Positions 301 to 33,569 of a stretch of 64,000 bases of DNA are shown in pieces. Below the pieces are notes generated by a model, which did not search any database, was not told where the DNA came from, and saw nothing but the letters and a program-made list of their open reading frames with translations. The position numbers and the translations under genes were made by a program. Within the stretch, counting starts at the first letter, position 1; the number at the start of each line of letters is the position of its first letter. Origin of the DNA: an uncultured Alphaproteobacteria bacterium (lineage in GTDB: Bacteria; Pseudomonadota; Alphaproteobacteria; Rs-D84); assembly GCA_944389385.1 (NCBI GenBank), contig CALXMC010000002.1, positions 15,353-79,352 of the forward strand, read 5' to 3'.

Positions 301-326
301 AAAACGGGGCATCGCCCCGTTTTTTT
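299..326. terminator. Bidirectional intrinsic terminator
   Basis: aaaaaacggggc-atc-gccccgttttttt; GC hairpin with A and T tracts directly after rplQ. Confidence 0.85.
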
Positions 327-905
327 GTTACTCGTAACTCCACCGCTGTCATTGCGAAGGAGCGCGAAACGTTGAAAACGTTGTCGTACGACTGTGGCAA
401 TCCAGTTATAATATGTCTGCGGGCAAACGCCCGCAGTGCTTTTTTATTTACTGGATCGCCACGGTCGTTTCACTCCCTCGCGATGACAAAGGGGACTAAG
501 TGGCTAATCCCACACCACTCTTGTCATTCCCGCACACTCTCTCGTCACCCCGGCATCGGGCCCCCACAAACACAAATGTGTTTGTGGGGTGATAGCAGGC
601 CGGGGTCCATTGCGTTCCCTTGGATGTTCGAAATTATAGGGTACGTATGTATGTTTCCATTATTACGAATTATCATTATATCAATGGATCCCGGCCTGCG
701 CCGGGATGACAAGTTACAAATAACCAACACCTGCACTCCGCACTCTCTAACCACCCCGGCACTTCGTGCCACCCCTCCAACGGAGGGGAACTTGGTGCGT
801 TCCCGTCGCGGAACAAAGTTCCCCTCTGCGGAGGGGTGGCGGCTTGCCGCCGGGGTGGTTCATCACCCGAAGTCTTGGCGAAGGGGGAAACACGAGTAAC
901 CAGTA
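327..905. repeat. Composite intergenic palindromic repeat cluster 1
   Basis: Contains gtcattgcgaagg...cgcgatgac (348-487), gtcaccccggc...gccgggatgac (544-710) and accaccccggcacttcgtgccacccctcc...ggaggggtggcggcttgccgccggggtggt (about 750-859). Each module recurs elsewhere in the window. Confidence 0.9.
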
Positions 906-909
906 ACTA

Positions 910-3312
910 TTAAAACTGGGTATCGCTGCATGTTTCGACCGGATCCGCCCATGTTTTACAATATTTGTTACCAAACAATGGATTACCAGTTTTTGTGCAT
1001 TGTTGGGTGCGCGTGCATTTATGGCATACCAGATTTTCCCAATCAAACGTTGTTGTAATCGTTTCTTTGTAATTCCACTGATTTACCGATTTTGAACCAG
1101 TTAAATCAAGTTGACCCGCACCATCGGCACCATTCGCACTGCCAGAACCTACATTCCCTAACAATCCTACTCCACTAGTTGCTATAGCAGCACTCGCCAA
1201 CCATATTGCCCCAACAGTAGTCACAGGAACAGTAAACGCAACGACCGTTGCAGCAGCAATTGCAACCGCCGACAACATTTTTCCAAATGCGTTTTTCGGT
1301 GGTTCGGCCGATTTTGGCAAACTGGACAGTTCTGCAAAATTAACGCATGCTTCGCGTGCCATTTCACGGCGCGCATCTTTGGCATTTTCGCCATGTATTT
1401 CGGCAATGCGTTCGCCGATTGTTACATAGTCTTGCTGTAACCGTTCGGTTAATTCATCATATTTGGCGTAATAATTGTCTTTGGCGGCTTTCAGCGCGGC
1501 ATTCGCGATAATCATACGCATTTGCGTTGTCAAGGCGGGAAAACGTCCGCGGACTTGACCCGTGTTGCCGGCACGGTCGACTATGGTTTCAATACCGTCA
1601 ACCTCGCGTCCGTTCATACAGTATTGAACGTTTGGATCGGATTCAATCGCGTTAATTGCTGTGTCGATGTTACGTTGCAATACCGCCAATTCAGACGAAA
1701 TCATTTCGCGCTGACTTTCGGGGATGTTCGTTTCGCCGATATTTTTCAAGTATTCATCAACCGAGATTAACCGACCGTCTTCATTAATTTCAACACTTTC
1801 CCAATAAATCACCCCGTCAATAACCCCAGCCAATGGCTTGATTGTTCCGGGAATTTGTTCACCGGTTGCGGGGTCAATGCCCGGACTGCGCCCCAGTTCG
1901 TCATCTGTGATTTGCGAAACATCGGTGCGGCAATTTGTATAGTTGATGTCCATGCTGTCGTTTTCGCCAGAATATTCGCAAATCTTGTATTCCAACGACC
2001 GTGACCCCAGGTTTTCATCAACGGTCAGCCCCAGGCAGTTATCTGTGTCACCACATACCTTTATCATGGCTTCGTCTGCGATTTTTTGGCATTGGGTCAG
2101 CATATTATTGTCGATGTTTAAGAATATGCCTTGGGCAATGTTGTATAATTCATCATAGACCGCATCGTCACGGATGTCGGTTTCGCCATATTTTTGTTGG
2201 CACCCGACCAAGGTGTCGTACGGGCACATGCGAACGATTGTGTCTGTATCCAAACCGATACACTGTGTGTAATCGGGACCGCATCTGTCTTCGGATTGCA
2301 GACAGTCTTTGAACTGAGTCGTACAAGAATTAACGCGCATGGATGCCAAACGTGCCAATATGAAATCCCATATATCGGATTCTGGGGCGGATTCTTCTGA
2401 TATACCGCATGCGTTCAATGGTACTTTACACAGGTTTAGCATCGTTTCGGGGCGGGTCAGGCACATATCGTATGAACCGTCTGGGTCGTTGGGATCCATT
2501 GTGTCTTTACAGGCCTGTTGGAAACAAGACGATATATTACCAATACAATTTTGACGGGCGTTATCCTCGGCAATCAGTTCGGCAGATTTAACCTGGGGCG
2601 CAACCTCGCGCAGGAATGTATCCCAAACCTGGGATGCAACGTTTTGGCATTGTCTGGTGATGCCTTCACACAGCGGTTTTTTGGACAATAAAATGTCATA
2701 GGTCGATGCCTGGATTTCAATGCTTGTTGCGCTGCCTTTGATGGTGTATGTGTTGCTTAAATCGCGGTTAGTGCTGCGTGTGTTGGTGGAATCAAACGCC
2801 GCAATGGATGCGCAACCTGAAAAGTCAGAACCGCAGCCGCCTGTTTCAATCATGCAATTTTTGAATTCCACAACGCATTGTCCCAAATCATACTTGTTTG
2901 CAGACTGATATTGTTCCAATGCCGCACTGCGCAGTGCTTGCTCGGCGGTATATAATTTTTGCGCACTGGCGTTACGTTGTTGCTTTAATGAATTTTCATA
3001 CGCGGTACAATCAGAACGAATTTGTTGCGCGTACATCAAACGCAACATATCCATTTCATCGGCACATTCAGGCATTTGTTGGGCGCAAATTTCATAAGAT
3101 GCCTGATGTAATGCGTCGCCGGTTTTGTTGTCAATAGGGCTTTGGAATATGTCGGCATTGGAAAAAATGTCTTCGTCAGATACATCAACCGGCATCAGCC
3201 AAGAATTCAAATCTGTGACATTGGTCAGATCTGGCAAATCTAACGGTGGTTTGATTTTCCACATTTTTTTGATGATAAAAAATTGTCGTAAAATGATAAA
3301 AAATCCTTTCAA
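910..3312 (-). CDS. Cys-rich paralog 'B'; 5'-truncated (no signal peptide or first Cys domain), probable silent cassette
   Basis: Open frame of about 780 aa. Homology to 3361-6375 begins abruptly at 3246 (PLDLPDL vs PLKLPDL at 4003). The upstream 22 codons are not signal-like. Ends WADPVETCSDTQF. Confidence 0.8.
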   Translation of the reverse strand: MKGFFIILRQFFIIKKMWKIKPPLDLPDLTNVTDLNSWLMPVDVSDEDIFSNADIFQSPIDNKTGDALHQASYEICAQQMPECADEMDMLRLMYAQQIRSDCTAYENSLKQQRNASAQKLYTAEQALRSAALEQYQSANKYDLGQCVVEFKNCMIETGGCGSDFSGCASIAAFDSTNTRSTNRDLSNTYTIKGSATSIEIQASTYDILLSKKPLCEGITRQCQNVASQVWDTFLREVAPQVKSAELIAEDNARQNCIGNISSCFQQACKDTMDPNDPDGSYDMCLTRPETMLNLCKVPLNACGISEESAPESDIWDFILARLASMRVNSCTTQFKDCLQSEDRCGPDYTQCIGLDTDTIVRMCPYDTLVGCQQKYGETDIRDDAVYDELYNIAQGIFLNIDNNMLTQCQKIADEAMIKVCGDTDNCLGLTVDENLGSRSLEYKICEYSGENDSMDINYTNCRTDVSQITDDELGRSPGIDPATGEQIPGTIKPLAGVIDGVIYWESVEINEDGRLISVDEYLKNIGETNIPESQREMISSELAVLQRNIDTAINAIESDPNVQYCMNGREVDGIETIVDRAGNTGQVRGRFPALTTQMRMIIANAALKAAKDNYYAKYDELTERLQQDYVTIGERIAEIHGENAKDARREMAREACVNFAELSSLPKSAEPPKNAFGKMLSAVAIAAATVVAFTVPVTTVGAIWLASAAIATSGVGLLGNVGSGSANGADGAGQLDLTGSKSVNQWNYKETITTTFDWENLVCHKCTRTQQCTKTGNPLFGNKYCKTWADPVETCSDTQF

Positions 3313-3336
3313 AAATACACCGATATATGATAGAAT
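3308..3336 (+). promoter_or_regulatory. Putative sigma70 promoter of paralog A
   Basis: ttcaaa-N17-tagaat upstream of an aaggac RBS-like sequence and ATG 3361. Confidence 0.45.
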
Positions 3337-3360
3337 TATGTAAATAGGAAGGACCTTTTT

Positions 3361-6300
3361 ATGAGAAAATTTGCAATTTTTTGTGCATTGTTGATTGGTG
3401 TTGTTTATAACGCAGATGCTGCGACCGCACGAAATCCACGCGGTGGGACGGTTGCGACGACCGGGGGGGCGGCCAGTACGGGTACTCGGTCGACTACTGC
3501 GCGCAGTGCGACGACGGCGCGTGCCGCGACGGCGACACGTGGTGCTGCACCGGCGGCGGCAACAACGGCGCGTGCGGCAACTGCGGGGCGTACCACGGTC
3601 AGTCGCGGCCCGGTTGCAACAACATCTTCGTCTTCATCGGGATCTGGGGTTGCGCGCAGTGCGGTTGCGCGTGCGGGTGCCACGCAGAAGGTTATATCCA
3701 CTGGAACCAAGGTTGCCACCGCAAATGAAAATGTAGTCGTCAGTCAAGAATGTCGCCAGAAATATTACGGTTGTATGGATTCTTTCTGTATGTTGGATAA
3801 CGATAATGGCGGCCGCTGTATTTGCAGTGACCGCAGTGCTGAATTGGATTCGATTTTGGCACAAATCGAGGAACTGGATCAGCAATCTTATCAGATGGCA
3901 ACGTATGGCGTTGAACGTATCGAAATGGGTGATGCGGCCGAGACTGCAATCGCAAATGCAAATGCCGTTGCCCAGGCCATTTTGGACGAGCAAGAAAATG
4001 GACCGTTAAAATTGCCTGATTTGAATACTTGGATGACGCCTGTTGGTGCCGAAGAAGAAGATATTTTCGAAGATGTTACAAATATTTACCAAAGCCCGGT
4101 CGAAGGCAAAGAAGGGGATGCGCTGTATTCCGCTTCGCATGATATTTGCGCGGCACAAATACCCGAATGCGAGGCTGAAATGGATATGTTACAGTTGATG
4201 TATTCACAACAAATTCGTTCTGATTGCACCGCGTATGAAAATTCATTAAAGCAACAACGTAACGCCAGTGCGCAAAAATTATATACCGCCGAGCAAGCAT
4301 TGCGCAGTGCGGCATTAGAACAATATCAAAATGCAAACAAGTATGATTTGGGGCAGTGTGTTATCGAATTTAAGACCTGTATGATTGAAACTGGCGAATG
4401 TGGCGATGATTTTTCTGGATGCGCGTCCATTGCCGCGTTTGACGAAACAAATACACGTGGTGCAGGGGATCGTGCAAAAACATATAAAATTCAGGGCAGT
4501 GCCACCAGTATAGAAATTAAAGCGTCTACCTATGACATTTTGTTGTCCAAAAAACCGCTGTGCGAGAGTGTTACCAAGCAGTGTGTGGCCGCAAACGAAG
4601 CCGATGGTGGTGACCAAGTGTGGATGGCGTTCCTGCGCGAGGTTGCCCCCCAGGTTAAATCAGCCGAACTGATTGCCGAGGATAATGTTCGTCAAAATTG
4701 TATTGGTAATATATCGTCTTGTTTCCAACAGGCCTGTAAAGACACAATGGATCCCAACGACCCAGATGGTTCATACGATATGTGTTTGACAAGACCGCAA
4801 ACGATGTTTTCGCTGTGTACTGTGCCATTAAACGCGTGCGGTATATCGGCAGAAGATGGTGATGCAGACGATGTTAATGATCCAAACGGAATTTGGGACT
4901 TTGTTTTGGCGCGTTTGGCGTCTATGCGTGTGAATTCGTGCACAGACCAGGTAAAACAATGTTTGCAATCCGAAGACAGATGTGGGTCTGATTACACACA
5001 GTGTATCGGTTTGGATACAGATACAATCGTTCACATGTGCCCCGAGGAATTGTTGGTTGGTTGCCAAACATACGATGGTGGCAGCAGTGCCCAAACATAC
5101 GGTAATGATGAAGAAGATTTCTATGCCAAATTAGAGCCCATGATCCAGGGTATTTTGCTGAATATAGATAACAGTTTGTTGGAAGAATGCCAACGTGCCG
5201 CAGATGAAGCAATGATTACAGTATGTGGCAGTACTGAAAACTGCGATAATATGACTGTTGATGAGTATATCGGCGCAAATACGTTGGAGTATAAGATTTG
5301 CAGAATAATTGGTGATGACGACAGTACTGATATAGATTATAACAATTGTTATACTGATTTATCCCAAATTTCTGATACTGAATTGGGATTGCATGATTTG
5401 AACAAGGGGGCTGATGGTGTTCGGGCGGCAAACGAGAGAATAGATTTCGCCATCATTATCGAAGGCGAAATGCCGTGGGAAAATGTAATATTTGATGAAA
5501 ATGGAAAAATAGCCATAACTTCAATCGACCCAGATACACAAAACCAACGTAAAATCGAATCGGAATTGGCAACATTGCAGAATAATATAAATAATGCAAT
5601 TAACGCGATTGAATCAAACCCTGATGTGCAATTCTGTACTGTTGGGCGTATTGTTCAGGGCGTGAATGATGATGATGTCGAGGTTGGACGTACACCACAG
5701 GTGTCTCAATCGTTGCAGACGGCACAAAGATTGCAACCAAATGCGCAAGTAAATCCAAATGCACAGTTGGTTCAGACCGCGCGGTCTGTATCTGACAGAA
5801 CCGCAACCCAGGTCAGTGCATTGGATGTCGCGGTAAATAATCAGACAATTGTCGATCGTTCCGGGGCGGGCGGACGTTTCCCGGGGTTGACCATGCAAAT
5901 GCGTACTATGATTGCGACGTCGGCGATAAATCGTGCCATTGCCAATTATCGCGCAAAATATCAAGAGTTGGAAGAACGCCGTATGCAAGATTATGTGACA
6001 CTGAATGAACGTATGGCAGAAATCGATAACGAAAATACATTAGAGGCACGGCGCGAGGCTGCGCGTATGGCGTGTATCGGAACTGCGGGGGCGTCTACGT
6101 TTAGTGCTGATGCGTTTTCTGTCAAAAAAGGACGCGAAACCGCCAAAGGTGATGTCGACAGCAGTTTGGTCGGCAAAGCCAATGATGAATATGTTGGAAC
6201 CGAAGATAACAGCCGTTGGAATTATCGCGAGGTTATAACGTCTACATTCAATCCGTCGACTTTGGTGTGTAATCGTTGTACCAGAACACAAAACTGTGCA

Positions 6301-6375
6301 GACCCCAAGGGTGGACGTAAATTGTGCAAAAGATGGTCAGACCCGGTTGAAACGTGCGAAGATATACAGTTTTAA
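3361..6375 (+). CDS. Secreted Cys-rich paralog 'A' (1004 aa), function unknown
   Basis: Signal peptide MRKFAIFCALLIGVVYNADA, Thr/Ala/Arg-rich linker, CRQKYYGCMDSFC..GGRCICS motif, coiled-coil-like segments, C-terminal WSDPVETCEDIQF. Confidence 0.9.
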   Translation: MRKFAIFCALLIGVVYNADAATARNPRGGTVATTGGAASTGTRSTTARSATTARAATATRGAAPAAATTARAATAGRTTVSRGPVATTSSSSSGSGVARSAVARAGATQKVISTGTKVATANENVVVSQECRQKYYGCMDSFCMLDNDNGGRCICSDRSAELDSILAQIEELDQQSYQMATYGVERIEMGDAAETAIANANAVAQAILDEQENGPLKLPDLNTWMTPVGAEEEDIFEDVTNIYQSPVEGKEGDALYSASHDICAAQIPECEAEMDMLQLMYSQQIRSDCTAYENSLKQQRNASAQKLYTAEQALRSAALEQYQNANKYDLGQCVIEFKTCMIETGECGDDFSGCASIAAFDETNTRGAGDRAKTYKIQGSATSIEIKASTYDILLSKKPLCESVTKQCVAANEADGGDQVWMAFLREVAPQVKSAELIAEDNVRQNCIGNISSCFQQACKDTMDPNDPDGSYDMCLTRPQTMFSLCTVPLNACGISAEDGDADDVNDPNGIWDFVLARLASMRVNSCTDQVKQCLQSEDRCGSDYTQCIGLDTDTIVHMCPEELLVGCQTYDGGSSAQTYGNDEEDFYAKLEPMIQGILLNIDNSLLEECQRAADEAMITVCGSTENCDNMTVDEYIGANTLEYKICRIIGDDDSTDIDYNNCYTDLSQISDTELGLHDLNKGADGVRAANERIDFAIIIEGEMPWENVIFDENGKIAITSIDPDTQNQRKIESELATLQNNINNAINAIESNPDVQFCTVGRIVQGVNDDDVEVGRTPQVSQSLQTAQRLQPNAQVNPNAQLVQTARSVSDRTATQVSALDVAVNNQTIVDRSGAGGRFPGLTMQMRTMIATSAINRAIANYRAKYQELEERRMQDYVTLNERMAEIDNENTLEARREAARMACIGTAGASTFSADAFSVKKGRETAKGDVDSSLVGKANDEYVGTEDNSRWNYREVITSTFNPSTLVCNRCTRTQNCADPKGGRKLCKRWSDPVETCEDIQF

Positions 6376-6385
6376 TCTGTGATGA

Positions 6386-9331
6386 ATGTTGAAACGAATA
6401 CTTGTTGTTTTGATGTTTGTGTGCGGGTTTAATATTCCCGCAGATGCTGCAACACGCAGTGTTTCGACTCGTACCGTGTCGCGAAATGCTGCGCCGGTGG
6501 CGAATGCCCCGGCGACCGCGGTTGCAGCACGCAGCGCAACGACGTCAACAAATCCATCCGCCGGTGTCGCGGCGCGCGCGGCAACAACACAAAAAGTTAT
6601 CGGAACGGGTACCAAAGTTGTTGCAGCAACCAAGCCCGTCGTTTCAAACGAAGAATGCCAACAAAAATATTTCGGTTGCATGGATTCGTTGTGCATGTTG
6701 GACAGTGCCAATGGTGGGCGGTGTGTGTGCAGTAATAAAAATGCGACCTTTGATTCCATTTTGGCTGAAATCGAAGATTTTGATTTGAAAACATATCAGA
6801 TGGTAACCGTTGGTGTCGACAGTCTGGAACAGGGGTACGATATAAACGCGGTTTATGCCAAACCTGAATCTGGGGTGGATTTGTCGGCATGGAATGCTGT
6901 GTCAGATGAAGAGTTTGTGCAATCGTCGTCGGCTTTGCCGTTAAGTGACGTGACGGGTGATGCTTTGTTTTTGGCCGCACATCAAAATTGTGCTGCTGCG
7001 ATTCCTGAATGCAGTGCCAATATGCAATTTTTGCAATTGTTATACAGCCAACAAATAAATAATGATTGTGCCGCGTATGAAAATTCGTTAAAACAGCGTC
7101 GTAATGAAGCCGCACAAAAATTAGAGTCTGCCCGTTTGGGGTTGTTGGATGCGTCTTATACCGCGTTAAGTAATGCCAATAAATGGGATTTGGGACAATG
7201 CGCGGTGGAATTCAAAAATTGTATGATTTCCACGGGTGGATGTGGTGCCGATTTTTCGGGATGTGCGCCAATCGCTGCGTTTGATGCAACAAACGCCCGT
7301 TCATCTGGGGCAGGGCGGCAATATAATATCGCGGGCGAACAAACCACCGTTACAATTTCTGCATCTACGTATGATACTTTGTTATCTAAAAAGCCGTTGT
7401 GTGATAATGTTACACAAAATTGTCAATCCGTAGCGGATCAGGTTTGGGATACATTCCTGCGTGCGAATGCGCCCCAGATTAAATATGCTGAACTGATTGC
7501 CGAAGATAACGCGCGCCAGGATTGTGTCGGCGATGTGTCGTCTTGTTTCCAACGTGCGTGCCGCGATAATATTGATCCGAAAGATCCGTCGGGGTCGTAT
7601 GATGCGTGTCTGACGCGGCCCGGGACAATGTTGTCGCTTTGTACTGTGCCGTTGAATGCGTGTGGGATTTCGACTGAATCAGCCGAGGCCGCAGAAAAAT
7701 CGGATATATGGCAATTTGTTTTGGCGCGTTTGGCATCTATGCGTGTGAATTCTTGCACCACTGAATTCAAAGAATGTTTGCAATCACCGGACAGATGCGG
7801 TTCTGATTATACTCAATGTATTGGGTTGGATACTGATACAATAATGCACATGTGTCCGTATGACACCTTGGTCGGATGCCAGCAGGTTTATGGCGCGCGC
7901 AATATTCGCGGTAATGCAGTATATGACGAATTGTACAATGTTGCCCAGGGTATCTTTTTGAACATAGATAATGAAATGTTGGATTATTGCGAAGCCGCAC
8001 TGGAACAGGCGACCATTACCGCATGTGGCGATTTGGATACGTGTAAAACACTGGTTGATGATACTTTGTTGGGAACTCGTTCGTTAAATTATGAAGTGTG
8101 TGAAATTGTTTTCTTGGATGAAGGTCAAAAAATCGCGTATCAAAACTGTGTTGCAAATGCGGGATTGGTGTCGGATGAAAAATTGGGGCGCGTGGTAAAT
8201 GCAGGCGGCGAAGGACTGGGGCCTGTTACCCCGATGGGTGGTGTGATCGACGGCAATATTTATTGGGATGGCGTTAAAATTGACGACGATGGAAATATCA
8301 GCAATGTGGATGAGTATTTCAAAAATATAGGAATCACAGAACCAGAACAGGATGAATATAATTCCGTTCATCGTGAATTGGGGCAATTGCAAAATAATTT
8401 ACAGCGGATTTATGACGTAATTGAATCCGATCCCACGGTGCAGTTTTGTATGACTGGGCGCGAAGTGGATGGAATAAAGCCTTATTCGGGTACGTCTGTG
8501 CCACGTTTCCCAGAATTAACCAAGTCCACACGTCTGAAAATTGCAAATCAGGGTCTGCGCCAGGCGATGGATAATTATTATCAAAAATATGATAAGTTAC
8601 AGGCGCAACAGGCCGAAGATTATGCGACCATTACCGAACGTTTGGCGGAAAATCGTGGCGAAAACGGCAAAGATGCCCGCCGCGATGCCGCACGTCAATC
8701 CTGTGTCGATTTGGCCAAGGGTGCGGCACTGCCACGTGCGAAAACCCCCACGTCTTTGATTGGAATCATTACCACAATAGTTGTGGTTATCGCAGTTGTG
8801 ACCGTCGTTACTGTATTTACAGCCGGTGCCGGTACAATAGCGGCAGGGGCGGGTATGGCGGCCGGATTCGAGGCTGCTGCGGGTTCTGGATTATCACTTA
8901 CAACTGTTTCTACTTTGAGTGCTGTTGGAACAGGCGCGGGGTTATCCGGTGCGTCTGGGGCTGGACTTAGCGGAATTGCGGCTGCGGCTTTTAGTGCCAC
9001 TACGACTTCTTTGGCAACATCGGCAACGGTTGCAACGGTTGTTGGGGTTGTTGGTGGAACGGCCGCCGCTGCGGGTATTACGGCCGCCGCCGCGGTTGAT
9101 TACACTGGCCCCCAGGCGGTCGATGGTTCTGGGGAATTGCAGGGCAGGTATGAAAATGACCAATGGAATTATCGCGAAGTCATCGAAACGCGGTTTAATA
9201 TGGATACTTTGGTGTGTGAAAAGTGTGTAACCCAACAACAGTGTAATCAGACAAAATCGCCTTTCTTTGGTAATATGTACTGTAACAGTTGGGCAGATCC
9301 TGTTACTGAGTGCACGGATATTCAGTTTTAA
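6386..9331 (+). CDS. Secreted Cys-rich paralog 'C' (981 aa) with long Gly/Ala hydrophobic segment
   Basis: Signal peptide and the same Cys spacing as A and B; hydrophobic Gly/Ala stretch of about 110 aa (LIGIITTIVVVIAVV...AAAGITAAAAV) before the C-terminal domain ending DIQF. Confidence 0.9.
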   Translation: MLKRILVVLMFVCGFNIPADAATRSVSTRTVSRNAAPVANAPATAVAARSATTSTNPSAGVAARAATTQKVIGTGTKVVAATKPVVSNEECQQKYFGCMDSLCMLDSANGGRCVCSNKNATFDSILAEIEDFDLKTYQMVTVGVDSLEQGYDINAVYAKPESGVDLSAWNAVSDEEFVQSSSALPLSDVTGDALFLAAHQNCAAAIPECSANMQFLQLLYSQQINNDCAAYENSLKQRRNEAAQKLESARLGLLDASYTALSNANKWDLGQCAVEFKNCMISTGGCGADFSGCAPIAAFDATNARSSGAGRQYNIAGEQTTVTISASTYDTLLSKKPLCDNVTQNCQSVADQVWDTFLRANAPQIKYAELIAEDNARQDCVGDVSSCFQRACRDNIDPKDPSGSYDACLTRPGTMLSLCTVPLNACGISTESAEAAEKSDIWQFVLARLASMRVNSCTTEFKECLQSPDRCGSDYTQCIGLDTDTIMHMCPYDTLVGCQQVYGARNIRGNAVYDELYNVAQGIFLNIDNEMLDYCEAALEQATITACGDLDTCKTLVDDTLLGTRSLNYEVCEIVFLDEGQKIAYQNCVANAGLVSDEKLGRVVNAGGEGLGPVTPMGGVIDGNIYWDGVKIDDDGNISNVDEYFKNIGITEPEQDEYNSVHRELGQLQNNLQRIYDVIESDPTVQFCMTGREVDGIKPYSGTSVPRFPELTKSTRLKIANQGLRQAMDNYYQKYDKLQAQQAEDYATITERLAENRGENGKDARRDAARQSCVDLAKGAALPRAKTPTSLIGIITTIVVVIAVVTVVTVFTAGAGTIAAGAGMAAGFEAAAGSGLSLTTVSTLSAVGTGAGLSGASGAGLSGIAAAAFSATTTSLATSATVATVVGVVGGTAAAAGITAAAAVDYTGPQAVDGSGELQGRYENDQWNYREVIETRFNMDTLVCEKCVTQQQCNQTKSPFFGNMYCNSWADPVTECTDIQF

Positions 9332-9333
9332 TA

Positions 9334-9570
9334 GTTACTCGTAATTCGTGATAGATCACCCTTCGCCAAGGCTTCGGGTGATAAACCACCCCGGCACGCT
9401 TACCACCCACGAAAATTGCATTTTCGCGGGGCCCGGTATCGTGCCACCCCTCCGCTAGATGAGGAACTTTGTTCCGCGACGGGATGGGGGCGGTAGCCAT
9501 AGCCTGACTCAGAGGAGAACTTGTTCCGCGACGGTACAGTCTAACTTCCCCTCCGCTAGATGAGGAACTT
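9334..9570. repeat. Composite palindromic repeat cluster 2
   Basis: gttactcgtaa, cacccttcgccaaggcttcgggtga and accaccccggcac...cccctccgctagatgaggaact modules shared with the other clusters. Confidence 0.85.
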
Positions 9571-9690: not shown

Positions 9691-11799
9691 CTATTCACAT
9701 GCACCGTGCGATTTCGCAACCGGATAGTTTTCCAGACATACACTGCCCGAAACTGTGCATGCGCCCGGAACCAATGTTATGGCATTGCTGTCCGCGGGTT
9801 TATAGTTAATTTGCGCCGATGCACACTGGTTCAAGTCAGTTATCGAATTGCACGAACGACGCCATGAATCACAATCTGAGGCAGAACCAGTCGGACTGAC
9901 CGTTTCCGGCAAATTCAGATTCCATTTTACATAGAAATCTTTCAGTGATTCAATTGCGTATGATTTGTTATATCCGACCTGGGCCAGGTTATCGCCAACA
10001 TGACAACTGATGTTGCTGCGTTCGACAAATGCAGTTATCGCGGTTGCCAACCCACCTGCGCCTGCACCAACGCCCGCGCCAATGCCGATTGCTTTACCCA
10101 TGTTGGATTCTTCGCCGTTTCGCAACAAGTCTGTGACGTCGGCGTTGAATATCCGTGACAAGATATCGTTTGCCTGTTGACATGTCATATATTGGGGTTC
10201 GTCACAATGCAGTAATGCCAACGGTACGTCCGTGGTTGCGTATGTTTCGGCTATTTTGGTTTGTGATACTAATTTGACCGTTGCGTGTTGTGGGTCGATG
10301 CCATACTTGTTGATGAATTCGTTTTGGCAACTTGTTGCATCATCGCTGGAACACGCGAAACTGACGTTATTCAAGTAATTTTCACATTCATCAACTGTGT
10401 CGAATTGTGTGCATGCAGTGGCGTATTGACTGAAACATTCGCCCGCATCCATGGAACCACAGTTCAATGACGTTGCAAATTTGAATATCGTGCTGTTTAT
10501 GTTGATTATGTCAAAACTGATGCCTTCCCCAAAATCAAACAGTTTTGTAATCTGTTCGCATTGGTCGATGGACACCATTTCAGTTATTGCAGATATTTTC
10601 AAAGATGGATCGTCAATGAATTCATTCACAGAACCAATCAAACCATCGTTCTTTAACAAATCGGTCAACATCTCACGATGTTTATCACGTGTGCAATCAA
10701 ACGCGCGGTCGCCATGACCCGCAATTGCACCAACGCCCGCGCCAACAACTGCGCCGCCACCGATACCCACAACCGCCGCAGTATTTGTTTGATTCATTAA
10801 CGAAAATCCGAATAAATCGCGATTGCATGTGAATGTATCGCCCGCGCGACGCCATACTTCGGCGGGTTGGTCGTTACCGACCGCACCGAATAACCAACTG
10901 TTTTTAATTTGTTGATTTTTGTTGTATGCCGCAACACGTATCCAACATTCAGCGGTTTCTGGATCCCAACGGGCGTAGTGTCCGCGTGCACCATCAACGC
11001 CCGAGTTGCCATAGTTTAATGCAGCACCCTGGGGGTTGCGTTTCACCAATATTCCGCCGTTTTGATTGTTGTATGCACCTGTGCTGATGTTGTATTCAGA
11101 TGTAACACTGCCTGCATTCGATACCGCATCAAATGATGGACCGTACGTATTTACATCCAAAAGTTTGCATGTGTTTTCAGCCTGGTACGGGGTTAATCCA
11201 GTTTTGCGTAATACAAAGTTATAGTATGTTGGTTGAACCTTGCGCGAGTTAAAGTCAATCCATACATCAGACGGCATACGATATACGTTGGAACAATCCT
11301 GGCGTACTTCGGCTATGCAGCGTTCAACCTGGGGTTGACATAAATTCATGCCGTTTATGATGGAATTGCGCAATTCCGTGTTAAACATGTCGTTAATGCC
11401 GCCGGGCAGGGCGCCACTGTTGATACATAACAACAAATCATCCATACAGTTATCAACCGTGTATGTTGAATTTTCAACGCCACCATCGGGGCATTCGGGT
11501 TCTGGATCCGGGTCTGGGTCTGGATCAGGATCTGGATCTGGGTCCGGATCTGGATCCGGTTGATCCGGATTGTCCGGCGTGACAGATGGTAAATTTGGTG
11601 AAGTATTACCGACCGTAAAATTTGGTAATGTCGGCATTGTTGGCATGCGTTGAGACGAACCGGCCGTTGTGGCCGCAGCACGCCCAGATGGTGCAGTATT
11701 GGCGCCACTGCGTGCGGTAACCGCGTCCGCCGAGCCGATTATTGCACATACAACAAATCCCGTTAATGGTGTCAAAAATAACCTGTGCCAAGATTTCAT
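9691..11799 (-). CDS. Secreted Cys-rich protein (702 aa) with Pro-Asp repeat linker and two glycine-zipper segments
   Basis: Signal-like N-terminus, (PD)n tract, AAVVGIGGGAVVGAGVGAIAG and AIGIGAGVGAGAGGLATAI segments, many Cys. Confidence 0.85.
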   Translation of the reverse strand: MKSWHRLFLTPLTGFVVCAIIGSADAVTARSGANTAPSGRAAATTAGSSQRMPTMPTLPNFTVGNTSPNLPSVTPDNPDQPDPDPDPDPDPDPDPDPDPEPECPDGGVENSTYTVDNCMDDLLLCINSGALPGGINDMFNTELRNSIINGMNLCQPQVERCIAEVRQDCSNVYRMPSDVWIDFNSRKVQPTYYNFVLRKTGLTPYQAENTCKLLDVNTYGPSFDAVSNAGSVTSEYNISTGAYNNQNGGILVKRNPQGAALNYGNSGVDGARGHYARWDPETAECWIRVAAYNKNQQIKNSWLFGAVGNDQPAEVWRRAGDTFTCNRDLFGFSLMNQTNTAAVVGIGGGAVVGAGVGAIAGHGDRAFDCTRDKHREMLTDLLKNDGLIGSVNEFIDDPSLKISAITEMVSIDQCEQITKLFDFGEGISFDIININSTIFKFATSLNCGSMDAGECFSQYATACTQFDTVDECENYLNNVSFACSSDDATSCQNEFINKYGIDPQHATVKLVSQTKIAETYATTDVPLALLHCDEPQYMTCQQANDILSRIFNADVTDLLRNGEESNMGKAIGIGAGVGAGAGGLATAITAFVERSNISCHVGDNLAQVGYNKSYAIESLKDFYVKWNLNLPETVSPTGSASDCDSWRRSCNSITDLNQCASAQINYKPADSNAITLVPGACTVSGSVCLENYPVAKSHGACE

Positions 11800-16619: not shown

Positions 16620-19600
16620 TTGTTGATGAAATATATAAGATTATTGTTGGTTGCTTTGTTTTTGATTCCGGCGGGGTCTGCGGTTGCGGCGGTTTCGGTT
16701 TCGAATAATGAATTTATGGTTGCGGCGCAATTGTTGGCGGCTGCGAAAAATGCCGATATTCAACAGGTTCAGGCCTTGATGAACGCGGGGGCGAATATAA
16801 ATTATGTCGACAGCACGGGGTTGTCGTTGGTTTGTACGGCGCTGATGAATAATGATATTCGGGCGGCGCAAATTCTGCAAATGTATGGCGCGGACGCATC
16901 AAATTGCGATCGACAGATTAAGCAATACGAATCGCGAACTAAACCCGAACCCAGTGGGGGATTGTTCAGCGGACTGTCATCCGCCCAGACAATATCTTTG
17001 GCGGCGGCGGGGGCCGCCGTTGTTGTAGGTGGACTTTTTTTATTGACTGATTGGTTGGATCCTGGAAACGAAAACGGTGGCGGTGCGTCCAGTGGTGGAA
17101 ATCGCCCGGGCCCCGGTGGCGACGAAGGCGATGACGATGTTACAACCGAAGAAATCACAATACCTGTTGGACCGGCTTATTTTACCAAAGATGGTGACAT
17201 TGCTTACAGTGAATCTGCATATCAAGATAATTTAACGATGTGGGGAAATACGCTGAAAAAAGATTTTGATTTTTTGCGGCCGTTGGAACAGCCAACTGAT
17301 AACTATTTGACGGCGGGTATTACGGTGCCGTTGCAAAATTATTTGCTGATTATGCACGGATATTCTGCGTTCGCAAACGGATATCTGGGGCAGGAAACTT
17401 TTCGCGATAAAGAACACAATCCTGTCCAGGTGATGAATAAAACCGGCGGGGGTGAACCTGTACGAGTGTCTTTGATTACTGCGAATGGTATAAACCCTGC
17501 GGGGTCGGCCGGGCGCAGTGTGGATGGAATTGCGTGGGCTTTGTCAACTGATGCCAAGGCCGAGACCAAGGTTTATGATAAATATTATAATTATGCAAAT
17601 CCATCTGGTGGAAATTTGGGCGCAGAAAAATCTGGGTTCGATTTATCTGGCAGTGGTACCGCAATGAATCCATTTGCCACGGCGAATGAATCTGCGCTGG
17701 CCAAGGTTATTGGCGGGTGGGAGGCCGGCGGTCGTGCATACGCTGATTTGTATGGATTTGTGCCAAATGGGCAATTGTCTGTATACAGAACAGGTGGCGG
17801 TAAAGAATGGGTCGATGCCGCCGAAGAAATACGCGAAACACCGGTCGGTAATTTATATGATTTGTCAACAACTGCTGATATTGCAGGCGAAGTAAATCCC
17901 GGCGATACTATCGAATTGGGCGGCGTTGTGTATAAAATTTTAAGCGTTTCGTCTGATGAGGCATTGGATAAACCCGATGGGGGCAGTTCTGACAGCGCGA
18001 CCAGCAGTGTTACACGCCCAACAATCACAATTGGTGGGACTAAGTTTGAAGTTGGTGCGGGCAGTCCTTTGTTAGTTGGGCGGTGCGATATGGAAAATTG
18101 TGCCGATGTTGGTGATATTGCAATATATCAGGGCGATGATGGATATTATTATGTGAATACTACGGGTGGCAGCGGCCCTGATATGGTTTATGATATTCGA
18201 GACGGTGTGATATATCAACAAAAGGAATTGGTGCAATCCCAGGTACGTACGTTCGAGGCTTTGTATGATGCGTTTATAGGGGATGGGGCGAATGTTTTGG
18301 CTAACTTGGCGGTTAACCCAGACTCGCGTAAAAATTCATATCTGAATACGAATCAAATCGAGGCGATTTTTGCGGGATTGGGCAATGGTACAGACGATAT
18401 GACAAAATTTGAAGCCTTGATAGATTATTATTATAAAAATCCCAATCAGACCGATGAAGATTCTGATTCTGGCCGCGGTCAGGGATATTATGCGGGATCT
18501 GTGTTCGGGCGTTATAATTCGGGATCGCCGATTTTGGTTATGCCTGCGGGTGAATTTGAATGGGGGCTGGGGGACGGTAAAAATCCCGATGCACTGGATG
18601 CAACGTTCGAAAACTATGCGCCGGCACTGTATGATAACAGATTGGAACATTTATTCATGACCGTTGTCGCGGTTCAACATGCAACAAATTCTAATTATCC
18701 ATTGGAAGAGGGTACCGCCCCCGCAGACAGTATTACTGATTATGGTAATGGGGTTGAATATGGGCCGCTGTATTTGTCCCAGTGGACGGACACCAAAGGC
18801 ACAGAAACAACCGATGATGATGTTATATATATGTCACGTAAATGCGGTATTGCAGGTTTGGGAATAAATGGTGTCGATCCGTGGTGCTTTTCGGCGGCGG
18901 GTCCCACAACCGAGATAGCGGCGGCATCCGCGGCGGGGGCTGTTGCGGCGTTGCAGGGCGCGTTTTCTTACATGAGTAATGGTGAAATATTTACTTTGTT
19001 GGCGCTGACTGCTGATGGGGCTTATTTGGGATATAAAGATGATGGCACAAGATTTACAACGGATACTTTGGTTGAATATTTGCAGGATATGTATTCTTTG
19101 CCACCGGAATATGCCAAACAAAATTTGCAGGGGAAAGAATATTTGAAGGCCTTTGCCGAGGTTTATGGTTATGGCATGATAAATCTGGAACGCGCAATGA
19201 CGCCTGGGAAACGTGTGTTTTATTATGATGGCGATGAAATTGTTTCGGGGCGTGGCGAATTTTTCCGCAGTGCGTCTGCCAATACTGTATTCCGCGCATC
19301 GTCTGTGTTTGGGCCGGGCAGTGCAACAATCAGTGCGCCGTTCTTTGATATTCTGGAAAGTGTTAATGGCGATATGTCTTTGCCACGCATTTGGAAAAAT
19401 GAGTTTGCGCTGGGGGTAACTGATAAACGTGGTTTGTATATGGGCGATGTTTTGGGCGAATTTACAACGCGCCGTGATGCACCGCAACGTGTCCAGTTTG
19501 GAAACTTTGGTTTTTCAATGACTGTGTCTGAAAAAGAATATGTCGATAACCTGAATGGTTTGGATAATATCCGTTTGGATTATACGCATGGTAATTGGAA

Positions 19601-20438
19601 TTTTGCGGCCGGTTATCAACGTCACTTTACGGACGGTGCGTCGCGGTTTGACGGAATGTCTAATCCGATTTTTGGGTTGGCGTCAAATGCGATTACCACG
19701 GATGCGTGGTATAATATGGGGCGTTGGTCGTTCGGTGCGCGTGCGTTTTCGGGTTCTGTTACAGATGAAACCATGTTGGATAATGACCCCACGATTTCGT
19801 CGCAGTATATGCCTGCGCGGTTGGGGTTGATGCAGGGGGCGCAATCCAGTGTTGCCTGGCATGGCGATAAGTTTGGTTTTAACACCTCTGTCGGTGCAGC
19901 GTTCGAATCGGATACATTGTTGGGTGCTTTGTCGGGCGGTTTATTGGACATGGGTAATGGTAATACAATATACGTTGATTCTGAATTCAGTTTCAGCCCC
20001 GCTGATGATGTGACGTTCAAATTGCGTTCCACTTTTGCCCGTACAAGTGCCGCGCCAAACGGGCAGTTTATATTGGGTATGTCTGAATTGAATTCAAATG
20101 CGTTTGCGTTTGGTGTCGATGCGGGTAATTTCAGTTTCAGTGTGTCCAGTCCGTTGGCTGTGGCGGATGGATATTTACAATATCCGTATGCTGAATACGA
20201 AATTGTAAATAATGGCGATAACGAATATGAATTGAATATAGTTGATACGCATATTGAAAATCTGTCGTTGCGTCCCGATAATCGCGAGGTTCGATTCACT
20301 GGTGCATATCGCCATAACTTTGGTGAATTTACAGACGGTGCGATTGGATTTATTTATCGTGTGCATCCGAATAACACAGATGAATTTGGTAATGAATCCA
20401 TATTTATGATGAAAATGACGCATCGTTTGGGTATATAA
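16620..20438 (+). CDS. Large exported protein: ankyrin repeats, degenerate subtilase (S8)-like domain, C-terminal beta-strand-rich domain
   Basis: Ankyrin-like LLAAAKNADIQQVQALMNAGANINYVDSTGLSLV; S8-like C-terminal PWCFSAAG..AAASAAGAVAALQGAF...LLALTA...YGYGMINLERA; alternating aromatic beta-strands at the end. Confidence 0.7.
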   Translation: MLMKYIRLLLVALFLIPAGSAVAAVSVSNNEFMVAAQLLAAAKNADIQQVQALMNAGANINYVDSTGLSLVCTALMNNDIRAAQILQMYGADASNCDRQIKQYESRTKPEPSGGLFSGLSSAQTISLAAAGAAVVVGGLFLLTDWLDPGNENGGGASSGGNRPGPGGDEGDDDVTTEEITIPVGPAYFTKDGDIAYSESAYQDNLTMWGNTLKKDFDFLRPLEQPTDNYLTAGITVPLQNYLLIMHGYSAFANGYLGQETFRDKEHNPVQVMNKTGGGEPVRVSLITANGINPAGSAGRSVDGIAWALSTDAKAETKVYDKYYNYANPSGGNLGAEKSGFDLSGSGTAMNPFATANESALAKVIGGWEAGGRAYADLYGFVPNGQLSVYRTGGGKEWVDAAEEIRETPVGNLYDLSTTADIAGEVNPGDTIELGGVVYKILSVSSDEALDKPDGGSSDSATSSVTRPTITIGGTKFEVGAGSPLLVGRCDMENCADVGDIAIYQGDDGYYYVNTTGGSGPDMVYDIRDGVIYQQKELVQSQVRTFEALYDAFIGDGANVLANLAVNPDSRKNSYLNTNQIEAIFAGLGNGTDDMTKFEALIDYYYKNPNQTDEDSDSGRGQGYYAGSVFGRYNSGSPILVMPAGEFEWGLGDGKNPDALDATFENYAPALYDNRLEHLFMTVVAVQHATNSNYPLEEGTAPADSITDYGNGVEYGPLYLSQWTDTKGTETTDDDVIYMSRKCGIAGLGINGVDPWCFSAAGPTTEIAAASAAGAVAALQGAFSYMSNGEIFTLLALTADGAYLGYKDDGTRFTTDTLVEYLQDMYSLPPEYAKQNLQGKEYLKAFAEVYGYGMINLERAMTPGKRVFYYDGDEIVSGRGEFFRSASANTVFRASSVFGPGSATISAPFFDILESVNGDMSLPRIWKNEFALGVTDKRGLYMGDVLGEFTTRRDAPQRVQFGNFGFSMTVSEKEYVDNLNGLDNIRLDYTHGNWNFAAGYQRHFTDGASRFDGMSNPIFGLASNAITTDAWYNMGRWSFGARAFSGSVTDETMLDNDPTISSQYMPARLGLMQGAQSSVAWHGDKFGFNTSVGAAFESDTLLGALSGGLLDMGNGNTIYVDSEFSFSPADDVTFKLRSTFARTSAAPNGQFILGMSELNSNAFAFGVDAGNFSFSVSSPLAVADGYLQYPYAEYEIVNNGDNEYELNIVDTHIENLSLRPDNREVRFTGAYRHNFGEFTDGAIGFIYRVHPNNTDEFGNESIFMMKMTHRLGI

Positions 20439-23760: not shown

Positions 23761-24997
23761 ATGACAATTTGTGAATTACCAATCCACTGCGCAATTTCGG
23801 TTCAAACCATGTCGTTTTTGGCGGCATGATGTTGCCTGTGTCTGCGATGTCAATGATTTGGCGCATTGTGACAGGGTACAACGCAAACGCCACGGCCATT
23901 TCGCCGGAATCTACACGTTTTTGCAATTCGCCCAATCCGCGTATGCCACCAACGAAATCGATACGTTTGCTTGTGCGCAGGTCGCCCAAGTTCAATATTT
24001 TATCAAATACCAAATTGGACAATACCGTCACGTCCAAAACACCAATCGGATCACCGTCGTTGTATGTGCCGGGTTTGGCGGTCAAAGAATACCATTTGCC
24101 GTCCAAGTACATGCCAAAGTTATGTAATTTATTCGGCTTGTAAATTTCAGTGCCCATTTCGGTGACTTCAAACGATTCGCGCAATTTGTCCAAAAATTCA
24201 GCGGGCGTCAATCCGTTCAAATCACGAACAACGCGGTTGTAATCGATAACGTGCAACTGGCTTTCTGGGAAAATTACAGCCAAGAAATAGTTATATTCTT
24301 CGTTACCGGTGTGATTTGGATTTTGTTCGCGCTTTTCCGCGCCAACGCGTGCGGCGGCCGCAGTTCTGTGATGGCCGTCTGCAACGTACAGGGCAGGTAT
24401 GTCGCGGAAAATTTCCGTTATGCGATTTATAATTGCATCATCGTCGATTTTCCAAAAAGTGTGACCAAATCCGTCGGGTGCAACAAAGTCATATTCTGGT
24501 TCGTGCGATGCAACGTAATCAGATATGATTTTGTTCATTTCTGCAACGTCCGGGTATGCAAAGAATACAGGTTCCAAATTCGCGTTTTGAATACGAACGT
24601 GAATCATGCGGTCGTCTTCTTTGTCTTTACGGGTTAATTCGTGTTTTTTGATCTTGCCGGTCATATAATCATCCACGTTTGCGGCGGCAACCAAACCGTA
24701 CTGGGTGCGACCGTCCATTGTTTGTGCATAGATGTAATACATTTCTTTGTCATCTTGGACCAACCAACCGCGTTCTTGCCACAGTTTGAAATTTTCAACC
24801 GCTTTGTCATAGACGGGTTGTGAATGTTCGTCCGCAATCGGATCAAAATCGATTTCTGGTTTGATAATATGCAGTAATGATTTTTCGCCGGCTTCGGATT
24901 TAGCCTCGGCCGAGTTCAGAACGTCATACGGGCGTGACGCAACATCCGCCGCCAATTCACGTGGTGGGCGAACACCTGCAAATGGTTTGATTTTCAT
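23759..24997 (-). CDS. DUF1015 family protein
   Basis: IKPFAGVRP, PYDV, IKKHELTR, YVADGHHR, MPPKTTWFEPKLRSGL. Confidence 0.9.
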   Translation of the reverse strand: MKIKPFAGVRPPRELAADVASRPYDVLNSAEAKSEAGEKSLLHIIKPEIDFDPIADEHSQPVYDKAVENFKLWQERGWLVQDDKEMYYIYAQTMDGRTQYGLVAAANVDDYMTGKIKKHELTRKDKEDDRMIHVRIQNANLEPVFFAYPDVAEMNKIISDYVASHEPEYDFVAPDGFGHTFWKIDDDAIINRITEIFRDIPALYVADGHHRTAAAARVGAEKREQNPNHTGNEEYNYFLAVIFPESQLHVIDYNRVVRDLNGLTPAEFLDKLRESFEVTEMGTEIYKPNKLHNFGMYLDGKWYSLTAKPGTYNDGDPIGVLDVTVLSNLVFDKILNLGDLRTSKRIDFVGGIRGLGELQKRVDSGEMAVAFALYPVTMRQIIDIADTGNIMPPKTTWFEPKLRSGLVIHKLS

Positions 24998-29500: not shown

Positions 29501-29802
29501 GTGTTGCAGGATTGAAATATGCGTTCGAAATCGAATCGGATGCACGGTTGAAATTCCGTCCAGAAATCCGTGCCGCCGCGACATACGATTTCTTGTCGGA
29601 TGAAGCGGTAACCACCGTTACAATCCCGGGTGCCAGTGCGTACGTGCTGAATGGTGAACGGTTGTCTCGGTTCGGTGGGGAATTCGGTATCGGATTGTCC
29701 GCGCTGTACGAAGGATGGGAAATTTCTGTGAATTACGATTTGGATTTGCACGAAGATTACACATCCCAGACAGGTATGCTGAAATTCAGATATAACTTCT
29801 GA
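26566..29802 (+). CDS. Type Va autotransporter / Pmp-like adhesin
   Basis: Signal peptide, many FxxN...GGAI beta-helix repeats, C-terminal barrel beginning YGVWAQG and ending KFRYNF. Confidence 0.9.
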   Translation: MSAYKHLTDLLKICSVLPALAIMPAVAAETSNDPNKVGQWSGNEYIEEENVKRGGGVLKLATGDTYQNDYIQAGLVSGNSISVTKTGGGVANDVYAQGSVLYSHGSLGGISGTFKNNSVNTSAAERGKASANGGAFALYAGTDIKSISGDFIGNSATSKVDGGKYSDKNNQVSAGGGAIHIEGQYGNKAVSIGEIDGDFTSNSANGDAYANGGAIYIKGGADREGNSGFAVTVGMIDGDFSRNSVTATADKGAFVAEAYMKNSTGGAVSIKEENGGAATVTIDGDFEYNTVTTNATNAFGGAIYNEGTLTLADSDFTYNKAASTSGDSRGGAIYNAATNAKGDTVAGSVTINGDVDIIGNSAGWGGAIWNEGELVFDNKGQQVTFGGNSATAGNAGGGAIYNIGSIGTLSHMLFQGNSADMGGAINNGWFEGKGGQIETITNSFFVGNVGKNGGAIRSNSHIGSITGVRFERNVSANGGALWNGSLADLNKIDGVQFLYNAATASGKGDRQGGAITNGGVITLVSNTNFIGNQAGDIGGAIANDVSQAGKTPTITLQNVLFDSNSAGKNGGAIHNVSGSVVNLMGNNTFVNNFAGGVANDIHNLGTLNIKGGVTTMTGGITGDGGVLTISGGAILDIGTASIQQSSIKFDGEGGKLFASLVNEDYYSKLLVDSIEGDADITLKIGSVGEYDVFGKDGVTSITFNHGNLFNVTTSDDNKVIVTTKDVATVAKDNGLANESAAVLVGLANSGNNAMNAMAIRAQDALKEQGGAQYVQAEAKKLLPQDTPVAQSVASSAQSQVLSLAAGRMSGNALVGRSGGDAANMDYGVWAQGLMNHSKYADKFSGDTYGVAVGADALINGKYTVGIGYAYNETDIDATHDMSIDSSSLFVYGQYKPTQWYINAALNYTMANYEESGVAFDRAFDSYKYDVDSFGGQIMTGYDFASGLTPEVGARYLHIATDDYNNGFNVENEDTNYLTGVAGLKYAFEIESDARLKFRPEIRAAATYDFLSDEAVTTVTIPGASAYVLNGERLSRFGGEFGIGLSALYEGWEISVNYDLDLHEDYTSQTGMLKFRYNF

Positions 29803-33222: not shown

Positions 33223-33317
33223 TTCCTGCTATATTTATACAAATGATAACAAAAATATGTTTTTATGAAAAGTAATATTTACGTAATGGGAATAAAAAAA
33301 CCGCCGTTTGGCGGTGT

Positions 33318-33569
33318 TTATTTATTTTCAGTATTTTCAGCCGTCGGACGGTTGCGTTCAACGAATGTTATACGACCCTTGTCCAAATCATAAGGTGTCA
33401 TTTCAACGCGAACGTTTTCACCAACATTTACCCATATCCGTAATTTTCGCATTTTTCCACATACTGTGGCCAATATTTCGTGTCCGTTTTCCAAACGAAC
33501 CCGGAACATAGTGTTGGGTAATTTGTCAATCACTGTGCCGCTGAAAACAATAACGTCATCTTTTGCCAT
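33318..33569 (-). CDS. infA: Translation initiation factor IF-1
   Basis: MAKDDVI..G.V...[33 protein letters not shown]. Confidence 0.95.

Follow-up and report, generated by a model that had tools for sequence, protein, structure and literature searches.

In Campylobacter fetus a single promoter is carried on an invertible segment placed between opposed sapA surface-protein homologues with conserved 5′ regions. The sap inversion depends mainly on RecA and works through about 600 bp conserved at the 5′ ends of the homologues, every one of which is a complete gene. In the vsa locus of Mycoplasma pulmonis the tyrosine recombinase HvsR is encoded at the locus itself and the vrs sites are 34 bp long. 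This work concerns a 64-kb stretch of DNA (the window; positions given without a contig name are its coordinates, whereas C1, C2 and so on denote contigs of the source genome, G000) from an uncultured alphaproteobacterium of the Rs-D84 group, in which three paralogous genes for Cys-rich proteins, designated B, A and C, lie side by side. B is a 5′-truncated cassette placed head-to-head with the full-length gene A, and the segment joining the two is probably a DNA-inversion switch of the expression-site/silent-cassette kind, in which the main junction would be site-specific and homologous exchange would add a second layer. It would resemble sap in that recombination takes place within coding homology, but the junction documented here comprises 7 nucleotides (nt) of identity and the silent copy is 5′-truncated.

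The same logic is described for the M. pulmonis vsa genes, which have one expression module, promoterless 5′-truncated bodies and in-frame fusion after the N-terminal part (PMC3047005). The vsa locus contains many cassettes where ours has one, and its shared module holds little beyond a lipoprotein signal, whereas the module analyzed here encodes 216 residues with a folded domain. The proteins are unrelated as well: those presented here are Cys-rich, about 1000 amino acids (aa) long and encoded by a Gram-negative alphaproteobacterium with no recombinase gene adjacent. In the mba/UU172 system of Ureaplasma parvum oppositely oriented genes are alternated by inversion at short inverted repeats, one of which lies inside an open reading frame (ORF); according to the same source the inversion can make chimeric genes, further sites have a core of about 10 nt, and the recombinase is presented as not identified (PMC3047005). 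Switching of mba was demonstrated in clonal cultures, at about 1-2% (PMC3047005), whereas our evidence is drawn from assemblies at the population level and concerns other protein families and other organisms. The hsdS shufflons, such as pneumococcal SpnIII and those of Bacteroides fragilis, also combine an expressed gene with inverted partial silent copies and have several inverted repeats within the coding sequence (CDS), at which crossovers give chimeras; as described, they need a site-specific recombinase and specific inverted repeats (PMC11868660; PMC7641763). They vary a specificity subunit and not a secreted structural protein, and the recombinase for the locus studied here would be encoded outside it. 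The small serine invertase Mpi of B. fragilis inverts 13 distant regions in trans (PMC4747536). Its targets are promoter-bearing, as is the segment examined here, and our genome encodes two Mpi-family matches; however, Mpi acts on intergenic promoter segments whereas this segment ends inside a CDS, and the Mpi-like enzymes are considered as candidates only. Intragenic invertons likewise have end points within a CDS and alter the protein product (PMC10028968), but they recode a single gene, while here a promoter and a 5′ coding part would be shared by two genes. The general design is known; new are the Rs-D84 organism, the family of proteins involved, how large a module is shared, the lack of a local recombinase and the possible action of an Mpi-like enzyme inside a CDS.

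Cassette B occupies positions 910-3264 on the minus strand and encodes 784 aa when read from the ATG at 3264; the mechanically called ORF is somewhat longer (910-3312, minus strand, start TTG 3312, 800 aa). Gene A (3361-6375, plus strand) encodes 1004 aa with 39 Cys and a signal peptide and is the full-length, expressed form in the window orientation. Gene C (6386-9331, plus strand; 981 aa, signal peptide) is a second full-length paralogue that starts 10 nt after the A stop codon. B and A are arranged head-to-head with 48 bp between the mechanical start of B and the ATG of A. The homology of B to A begins only at about A residue 210-215, so B, a promoterless paralogue with 33 Cys, lacks the signal peptide, the T/A/R-rich low-complexity linker and the first Cys-rich helical domain. 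A preliminary description of this DNA, made from the sequence, had noted that B misses about the first 214 aa of A and is nevertheless open for about 780 codons, and both the alignment and the ORFs (784 codons) agree with it.

The evidence that carries the proposed switch comes from natural variants taken from protein clusters at no less than 90% identity, the swapped proteins among them originating from public metagenome assemblies. One cluster of 37 members includes B in its exact 784-aa form, and A is the representative of a 48-member cluster; among the 15 members listed for each, A-type proteins are nearly all 1001-1004 aa and B-type proteins nearly all 779-789 aa long. P0192, a protein of the B cluster (992 aa), has A residues 1-216 (216/216 identical) followed by the body of B (764/776). 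P0185, a protein of the A cluster (796 aa), starts with the stub of B (8/8 residues) and continues as A from residue 217 (787/788). Judged by their sequences, P0192 and P0185 are the reciprocal pair expected from inverting the segment between the two junctions, and they come from strains almost identical to the source strain. Both are listed with a longest contig of 18,871 bases, and since five further A/B pairs in the window arrangement likewise match in their longest-contig figures, we infer that P0192 and P0185 lie on one contig. A scan of metagenome contigs with P0192 as the query retrieved other species only, at no more than 72% identity, and from genome contigs a scan gave just representatives of species. 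The search with A residues 1-216 gave only one listed cluster representative with the module of this species (P0001), because other full-length forms belong to clusters with truncated representatives.

Only one interval in the DNA of the source strain fits both protein junctions. It is a 7-nt core at 3241-3247 (minus strand), positioned from the junctions of P0192 and P0185, that is identical to 4002-4008 on the plus strand, where it encodes Pro-Leu (A aa 215-216), and is bounded by mismatches on both sides. The core falls at the very start of the homology, in a region in which A and B share 0.5-0.66 of their nucleotides, about 220 nt from the 72-bp and about 690 nt from the 77-bp tract of exact identity (blocks 1 and 2, described below). 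Right after Pro-Leu P0192 is of B type through the whole stretch up to block 1, so a crossover within the 72- or 77-bp block cannot have made this protein. The idea put forward in the preliminary description, that promoter and 5′ end are inverted onto B by a crossover in one of these blocks, is therefore supported by the reciprocal pair as to the inversion and fails for P0192 and P0185 as to the place of crossover. The precise, in-frame and reciprocal exchange at 7 nt despite the long tracts nearby would favour a site-specific enzyme over homologous recombination.

The left core is accompanied by an imperfect 13-2-13 dyad, site L (3233-3260, minus strand), symmetric at 10 of 13 positions around the dinucleotide 3246-3247; dyads as good as this one occur at 32 of the 63,972 window positions. 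The right core is located inside site R (3989-4016, plus strand), which shares with site L the central dinucleotide and 11 of 13 outer-half positions. The inner half of site L encodes the stub MWKIKP, and the stub is conserved as MW[KQ]IK[PG]PL in 24 proteins. The motif Pro-Leu-x-Leu-Pro-Asp-Leu was present in 40 of 225 proteins compared, all of them from the A/B clusters of this strain group. In the AlphaFold2 model of A the junction falls within a predicted disordered linker (aa 213-244, predicted local distance difference test score, pLDDT, <50) between folded parts. The segment delimited by the two cores, 3248-4001 (about 754 bp), comprises the B stub, the promoter, the Shine-Dalgarno sequence and the codons for A aa 1-214 (signal peptide, T/A/R-rich linker, first Cys-rich helical domain), and from the reciprocal natural variants we infer that it inverts as an expression module.

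In the proposed mechanism the module, which holds the only promoter, sits between promoterless bodies pointing apart, with B on its left side and A, then C, on its right. Oriented as in the window it would drive A and probably C; after inversion it would be fused in frame to B, and an 8-codon stub would be left in front of the A body. The exchange would take place in the 7-nt core within short imperfect inverted repeats, one of them the 13-2-13 dyad, and a site-specific recombinase would act in trans. As a second layer, homologous exchange or conversion at tracts of 72, 77 and 32 bp may shuffle segments of the bodies and yield mosaics.

The source genome (0.99 Mb in 11 contigs) encodes three tyrosine and five serine recombinases, and no IS110-type enzyme was found in it. 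Two of the proteins match the Mpi-family model NF009949 (NCBIfam), one encoded at C2:107020-107604 (299.7 bits, cut-off 272) and the other at C5:111509-112111 (235.7 bits), and both combine a Resolvase domain with a weak C-terminal helix-turn-helix match. The former is also the recombinase match nearest to the window, about 28 kb past its end. Of 61 genomes of the genus, 51 contain a match to the Mpi family, and in 26 the score exceeds the cut-off. These two serine invertases are the obvious candidates, and candidates only, for inversion of the module; among the inverted repeats around the two genes nothing related to the site was found.

Homology between A and B is unevenly distributed. Block 1 (72 bp, exact) lies at 4228-4299 on the plus strand and 2935-3006 on the other strand and corresponds to A aa 290-313; block 2 (77 bp, exact) lies at 4690-4766 on the plus strand and 2480-2556 on the other and corresponds to A aa 444-469; a third exact tract of 32 nt joins 4990-5021 (plus strand) with 2243-2274. 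In a codon-aligned sliding window the nucleotide identity reached 0.94-0.99 in two tracts (about 4198-4300 and 4633-4770) and 0.88 near 4951 and was 0.3-0.7 elsewhere, the C-terminal halves being divergent, so that the check set beforehand, patchy against uniform identity, came out as patchy. Third-position identity at conserved residues is near complete within the tracts and about half outside them; 74 of 81 identical residues share the same codon inside the tracts versus 171 of 353 outside. When codon columns were shuffled (2000 trials) the longest exact run had a mean of 19.6 and a maximum of 44 nt, and 0/2000 trials reached 72, the observed value being 77. The inverted blocks identical even at synonymous sites, and the putative promoter and signal-peptide segment between them, are thus as they had been described. 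The longest exact match of gene C is 20 nt to A and 23 nt to B; as far as its sequence tells, C takes no part in the A/B exchange.

Sixty-one proteins of the A/B clusters, 21 of them partial or called from a later start, were sorted by head and tail. The full N-terminal module is followed by an A-type tail in 13 proteins, a B-type tail in one (P0192) and a third type of tail in two (P0215 and P0214, the latter cut at a contig end). Behind the stub the tail is of B type in 16, of A type in four (P0185, which is exact, and three proteins of the P0008 group at 71%) and of the third type in another four. Each of the three body types is therefore met behind both the full module and the stub.

Several bodies are mosaic. 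P0215 painted against A, B and the third type appeared A-type to about aa 271, B-type at about aa 324-423 and third-type from about aa 457; its A-to-B junction interval (aa 272-323) contains block 1. Block 2 is overlapped by the intervals (aa 424-457) in which P0214 and P0215 pass over to the third tail type; P0214 changes there from A type to the third type. The cassettes P0122, P0123, P0044 and P0008 are also mosaic, changing type close to these places and around aa 630, and in P0208 a short A-type patch stands directly behind the stub. Such mosaic junctions, together with the identity at synonymous sites, support a putative second layer in which the blocks repeatedly undergo homologous exchange or conversion. 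The suggestion that several crossover sites would give several chimeras gains from the junctions of P0214 and P0215 at the blocks and loses from the shortness of the contigs that carry these two proteins, which may be assembly chimeras.

A more elaborate form of the switch is put forward tentatively: a two-tier system in which an Mpi-like invertase acting in trans flips the module and homologous reshuffling of the bodies goes on at identity tracts that are maintained. The flip would then swap a whole body of about 780 residues and toggle gene C and a C-terminal hydrophobic hairpin together. The stub codons of the silent copy would double as the inner half of the recombination site, the module would end at the disordered inter-domain linker, and one cassette could give many mosaics across the population.

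The same tracts and mosaics may be explained, with rather low probability, by a purely homologous switch of the RecA type, working at the 72-, 77- and 32-bp tracts with no site-specific enzyme, the exchange at the start of homology being a rare illegitimate event. It would account for exact tracts that reach synonymous sites, for the junction intervals of P0215 and P0214 that contain or overlap blocks 1 and 2, and for the lack of a recombinase adjoining the locus; assemblies of related species break at the conserved blocks, suggesting repeated tracts there too. However, homologous recombination would favour the long blocks, whereas the sole clean reciprocal pair has its junction in the 7-nt core, upstream of block 1 and in poorly matched sequence, and the chimeras with junctions at the blocks come exclusively from short contigs, which assemblers could have joined at exact repeats.

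It is quite unlikely that B is a dead partial duplicate, with the tracts due to occasional gene conversion, the swapped strain a one-off and no programmed switch at all. The dominance of the window orientation among the listed assemblies agrees with this explanation, as does the lack of heterogeneity seen within samples, for which reads were at about 1-5x and contigs ended at repeats. The loci of other assemblies speak in the same direction. In 34 such loci (some genomes being present in more than one set) rplQ is followed by one or two full-length genes of the family and then by the 702-aa gene down702, usually all on one strand, and no reverse-strand family match was found between rplQ and the first gene; the head-to-head truncated copy beside a full gene is thus specific to this strain group among those examined. 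Against a dead duplicate stands the state of the cassettes themselves. The 24 stub-headed proteins are 772-809 aa long and all reach the conserved C-terminus, and cassette tails that have diverged by 12-16% (84-88% identity) are still open to that C-terminus over 763-809 codons, which is hard to square with a decaying pseudogene. The stub and the truncation point have been kept across three body types, all three body types are found in both states, and the exchange was precise, in frame and reciprocal.

Among the related genomes, G078 shows the N-terminal part once, at a contig end, and bodies on two separate contigs (one with an A-type body followed by a C-like gene, the other with a B-type body), which suggests one module with two bodies. 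In G079, another Enterousia species (locus L076 on contig C7 of that genome, positions 3-431 of the locus, minus strand), a 5′-truncated B-type body sets in abruptly at the third conserved block, at about A residue 510, behind 17 unrelated codons; it lies on the strand opposite to the neighbouring gene and the rest of it runs off the contig. Contig ends of several assemblies fall within the gene, at conserved blocks. Related devices thus seem to exist among the relatives. In the window down702 (9691-11799) is on the minus strand, but the other assemblies examined have it on the rplQ strand; in G003 the two family genes are inverted instead. The region has been rearranged more than once.

The promoter and Shine-Dalgarno sequence were located on the plus strand at 3308-3353 (-35 motif 3308-3313, TG-extended -10 motif 3331-3336, Shine-Dalgarno sequence 3346-3353), between the stub and the ATG of A and hence inside the module. 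The -35-like and TG-extended -10-like motifs and the strong Shine-Dalgarno sequence are kept with minor variants upstream of the orthologue in all 12 aligned sequences (the window and 11 loci of other assemblies). For B no conserved promoter was found and no Shine-Dalgarno sequence precedes ATG 3264; there is a weak promoter-like match on the minus strand at 3299-3272. The promoter scan gave 15 sites versus 16.1 expected from shuffles, and none of its promoter-like sites stands in front of C. Gene C is probably co-transcribed with A; since it follows the A stop closely with no promoter-like site ahead of it, a flip of the module would probably silence the A body and C together. Contigs of the RNA library X15 covered 8/8 bins of A, 7/7 bins of C and 0/5 bins of B (1201-3200). 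An independent gene B translated from ATG 3264 without a signal peptide would explain why gene callers give the 784-aa protein in many assemblies, and the weak minus-strand match and the low depth on B in a second RNA library (X16) are compatible with it, but it is very improbable given the missing Shine-Dalgarno sequence, a promoter scan no better than shuffles, the absence of X15 RNA contigs on B and the prospect of a 33-Cys protein from a signal-peptide family residing in the cytoplasm.

A number of observations weigh against the proposed site-specific inversion. The crossover interval was deduced from the protein junctions and the DNA of the source strain, and not from nucleotides of the swapped strain; equal longest-contig figures are all that places the two swapped proteins on a shared contig, and the swapped arrangement is rare (1 of the 15 listed members in each cluster). 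Site R is symmetric at just 6-7 of 13 positions and is weak as a dyad. The 14-nt degenerate core of the sites was found genome-wide at the two sites and in one unrelated gene; with the motif confined in this way to the locus, nothing links the Mpi-like enzymes to the site. No recombinase gene was found within the 64-kb window by Phage_integrase and Resolvase matches, and none is encoded at the locus. P0214 and P0215, from contigs of 3133 and 3925 bases, may be artefacts, because assemblers can join co-existing strains at exact repeats. In the RNA library X16 the depth was 2-4 on B, compared with about 7 over the module and 0-4 over the A body; the signal on B could reflect DNA carry-over, a mixed population or independent transcription, and the anticipated silence of B in the window orientation is accordingly supported by X15 and blurred by X16. 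No inverted read or contig was seen: raw reads of X21 reached about 1-5x at the locus, and at this depth no joint at the A/B sites attained the listing threshold. In the DNA run X6 the Logan contigs break off precisely where the 72- and 77-bp repeats lie, and the one contig to cover both junction sites (2977-4257) is oriented like the window. With such low depth and with contigs ending at repeats, the reads neither show nor exclude inversion within a sample.

The proteins encoded by the three genes differ in their hydrophobic segments. B has a hydrophobic hairpin encoded at 1156-1278 on the minus strand (aa 663-703 of the 784-aa form; Kyte-Doolittle peak 2.16), A has no hydrophobic segment apart from its signal peptide, in accordance with the hydrophilic character reported for it at this place, and C has a segment longer than that of B. 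The hairpin is hypervariable among strains: P0121, P0122 and P0123 differ there, and in the strain of run X6 positions 1143-1293, the hairpin region, are swapped for 161 other letters. According to the preliminary description, a switch between A and B could by way of this hairpin toggle insertion into, or anchoring to, the membrane. The C proteins, by cluster members listed, were 972 or 981 aa long in 15/15 cases.

The family was detected in 24/24 genomes of the same genus and in 0/16 genomes from other families of the order (B as the query, E ≤1e-50), and it has no sequence match in Pfam, NCBIfam or among solved structures (PDB). About 30 cysteines are invariant across 64 homologues. The AlphaFold2 model of A (mean pLDDT 66, predicted template modelling score 0.44) consists of a disordered part (11-124), a helical domain (129-212), the disordered linker, long helices, beta parts and a C-terminal domain rich in beta structure. 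Foldseek comparison of the model with PDB gave 0 matches at E ≤0.001, and an Atlas search with a homologue as the query returned unnamed clusters only, with scores ≤0.83. It is a reasonable reading that A is a secreted or surface-exposed disulfide-rich protein.

Other parts of the window were recorded as well. Its left end holds the 3′ end of rplQ (1-300), which is followed by about 600 bp of dispersed repeats and then by the B, A and C genes. Dispersed repeats flank the B-A-C block on both sides (335-535, 740-909 and 9352-9500); the flanking unit of about 200 bp is present some 28 times in the genome and the short GC-rich hairpin-like units 40-85 times. These repeats account for spikes in read depth and for odd joints among the reads, and opposite-strand joints of 804/838 to 9393-9469 and a skip from 326 to 9356 were set aside, as they fall in repeats of 28-85 copies. 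Large secreted proteins without a known family fill much of the window; a 1078-aa autotransporter with Chlamydia PMP repeats (26566-29802) was also noted, as was a 1272-aa protein that matches ankyrin weakly (16620-20438). A 245-nt inverted repeat with 97% complementary arms (41806-42050 and 44750-44994) lies between a 187-aa ORF (41496-42059, minus strand) and the C-terminal part of a 629-aa ORF (43484-45373, plus strand), both with weak OmpA-family matches; the silent piece at this place would replace a 3′ end. It is probably the first locus to which the preliminary description alluded; the listed cluster members show no length variants. The region 30667-38433 was rejected in that role, as it contains three full-length paralogues with their own signal peptides and no long inverted repeats.

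Further features lie outside the window. The third copy of the 14-nt core (C2:112182) lies inside a CDS of an M23-peptidase-like protein, 5 kb from one Mpi-family invertase gene, and has no inverted partner. At C2:86374-91076 there are five small genes for Cys-rich secreted proteins (240-314 aa) in both orientations, with common 5′ ends (MGRI[NQ]M...) and a shared upstream 30-bp near-palindrome; the latter shares 11 nt with the B-side site, a match that may be due to chance (about 0.5 expected per genome). At C4:21254-24792 about nine direct copies of a unit of about 40 nt are spaced by about 240-330 bp, with one inverted copy at 24577-24625, and a 402-aa tyrosine integrase is encoded 3 kb away (C4:27520-28728), a layout that is shufflon-like. 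A perfect 211-bp inverted repeat on C1 (35003-35213 and 36567-36777), its arms separated by 1353 bp, overlaps a 459-aa ORF without a known family at the 3′ end of the latter and lies about 30 bp downstream of the dnaA stop codon.

The host is a species of Candidatus Enterousia from chicken gut, and the sequencing runs that contain the locus are mostly chicken-gut metagenomes. Candidatus Enterousia (Rs-D84) is described as uncultured, inhabiting animal and human gut and having genomes of about 1 Mb with most biosynthetic pathways missing (PMC12306168); neither inversion nor surface was found in the text of that paper. The present analysis indicates that public protein clusters can reveal switched states where reads are uninformative. 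The locus offers a concrete substrate for asking whether the Mpi-family invertases found across the genus act on sites inside CDS. If verified, the switch would identify the Cys-rich proteins as secreted or located at the surface and as subject to diversifying selection, and the family would be a prime candidate for contact with the host, a partner cell or phages.

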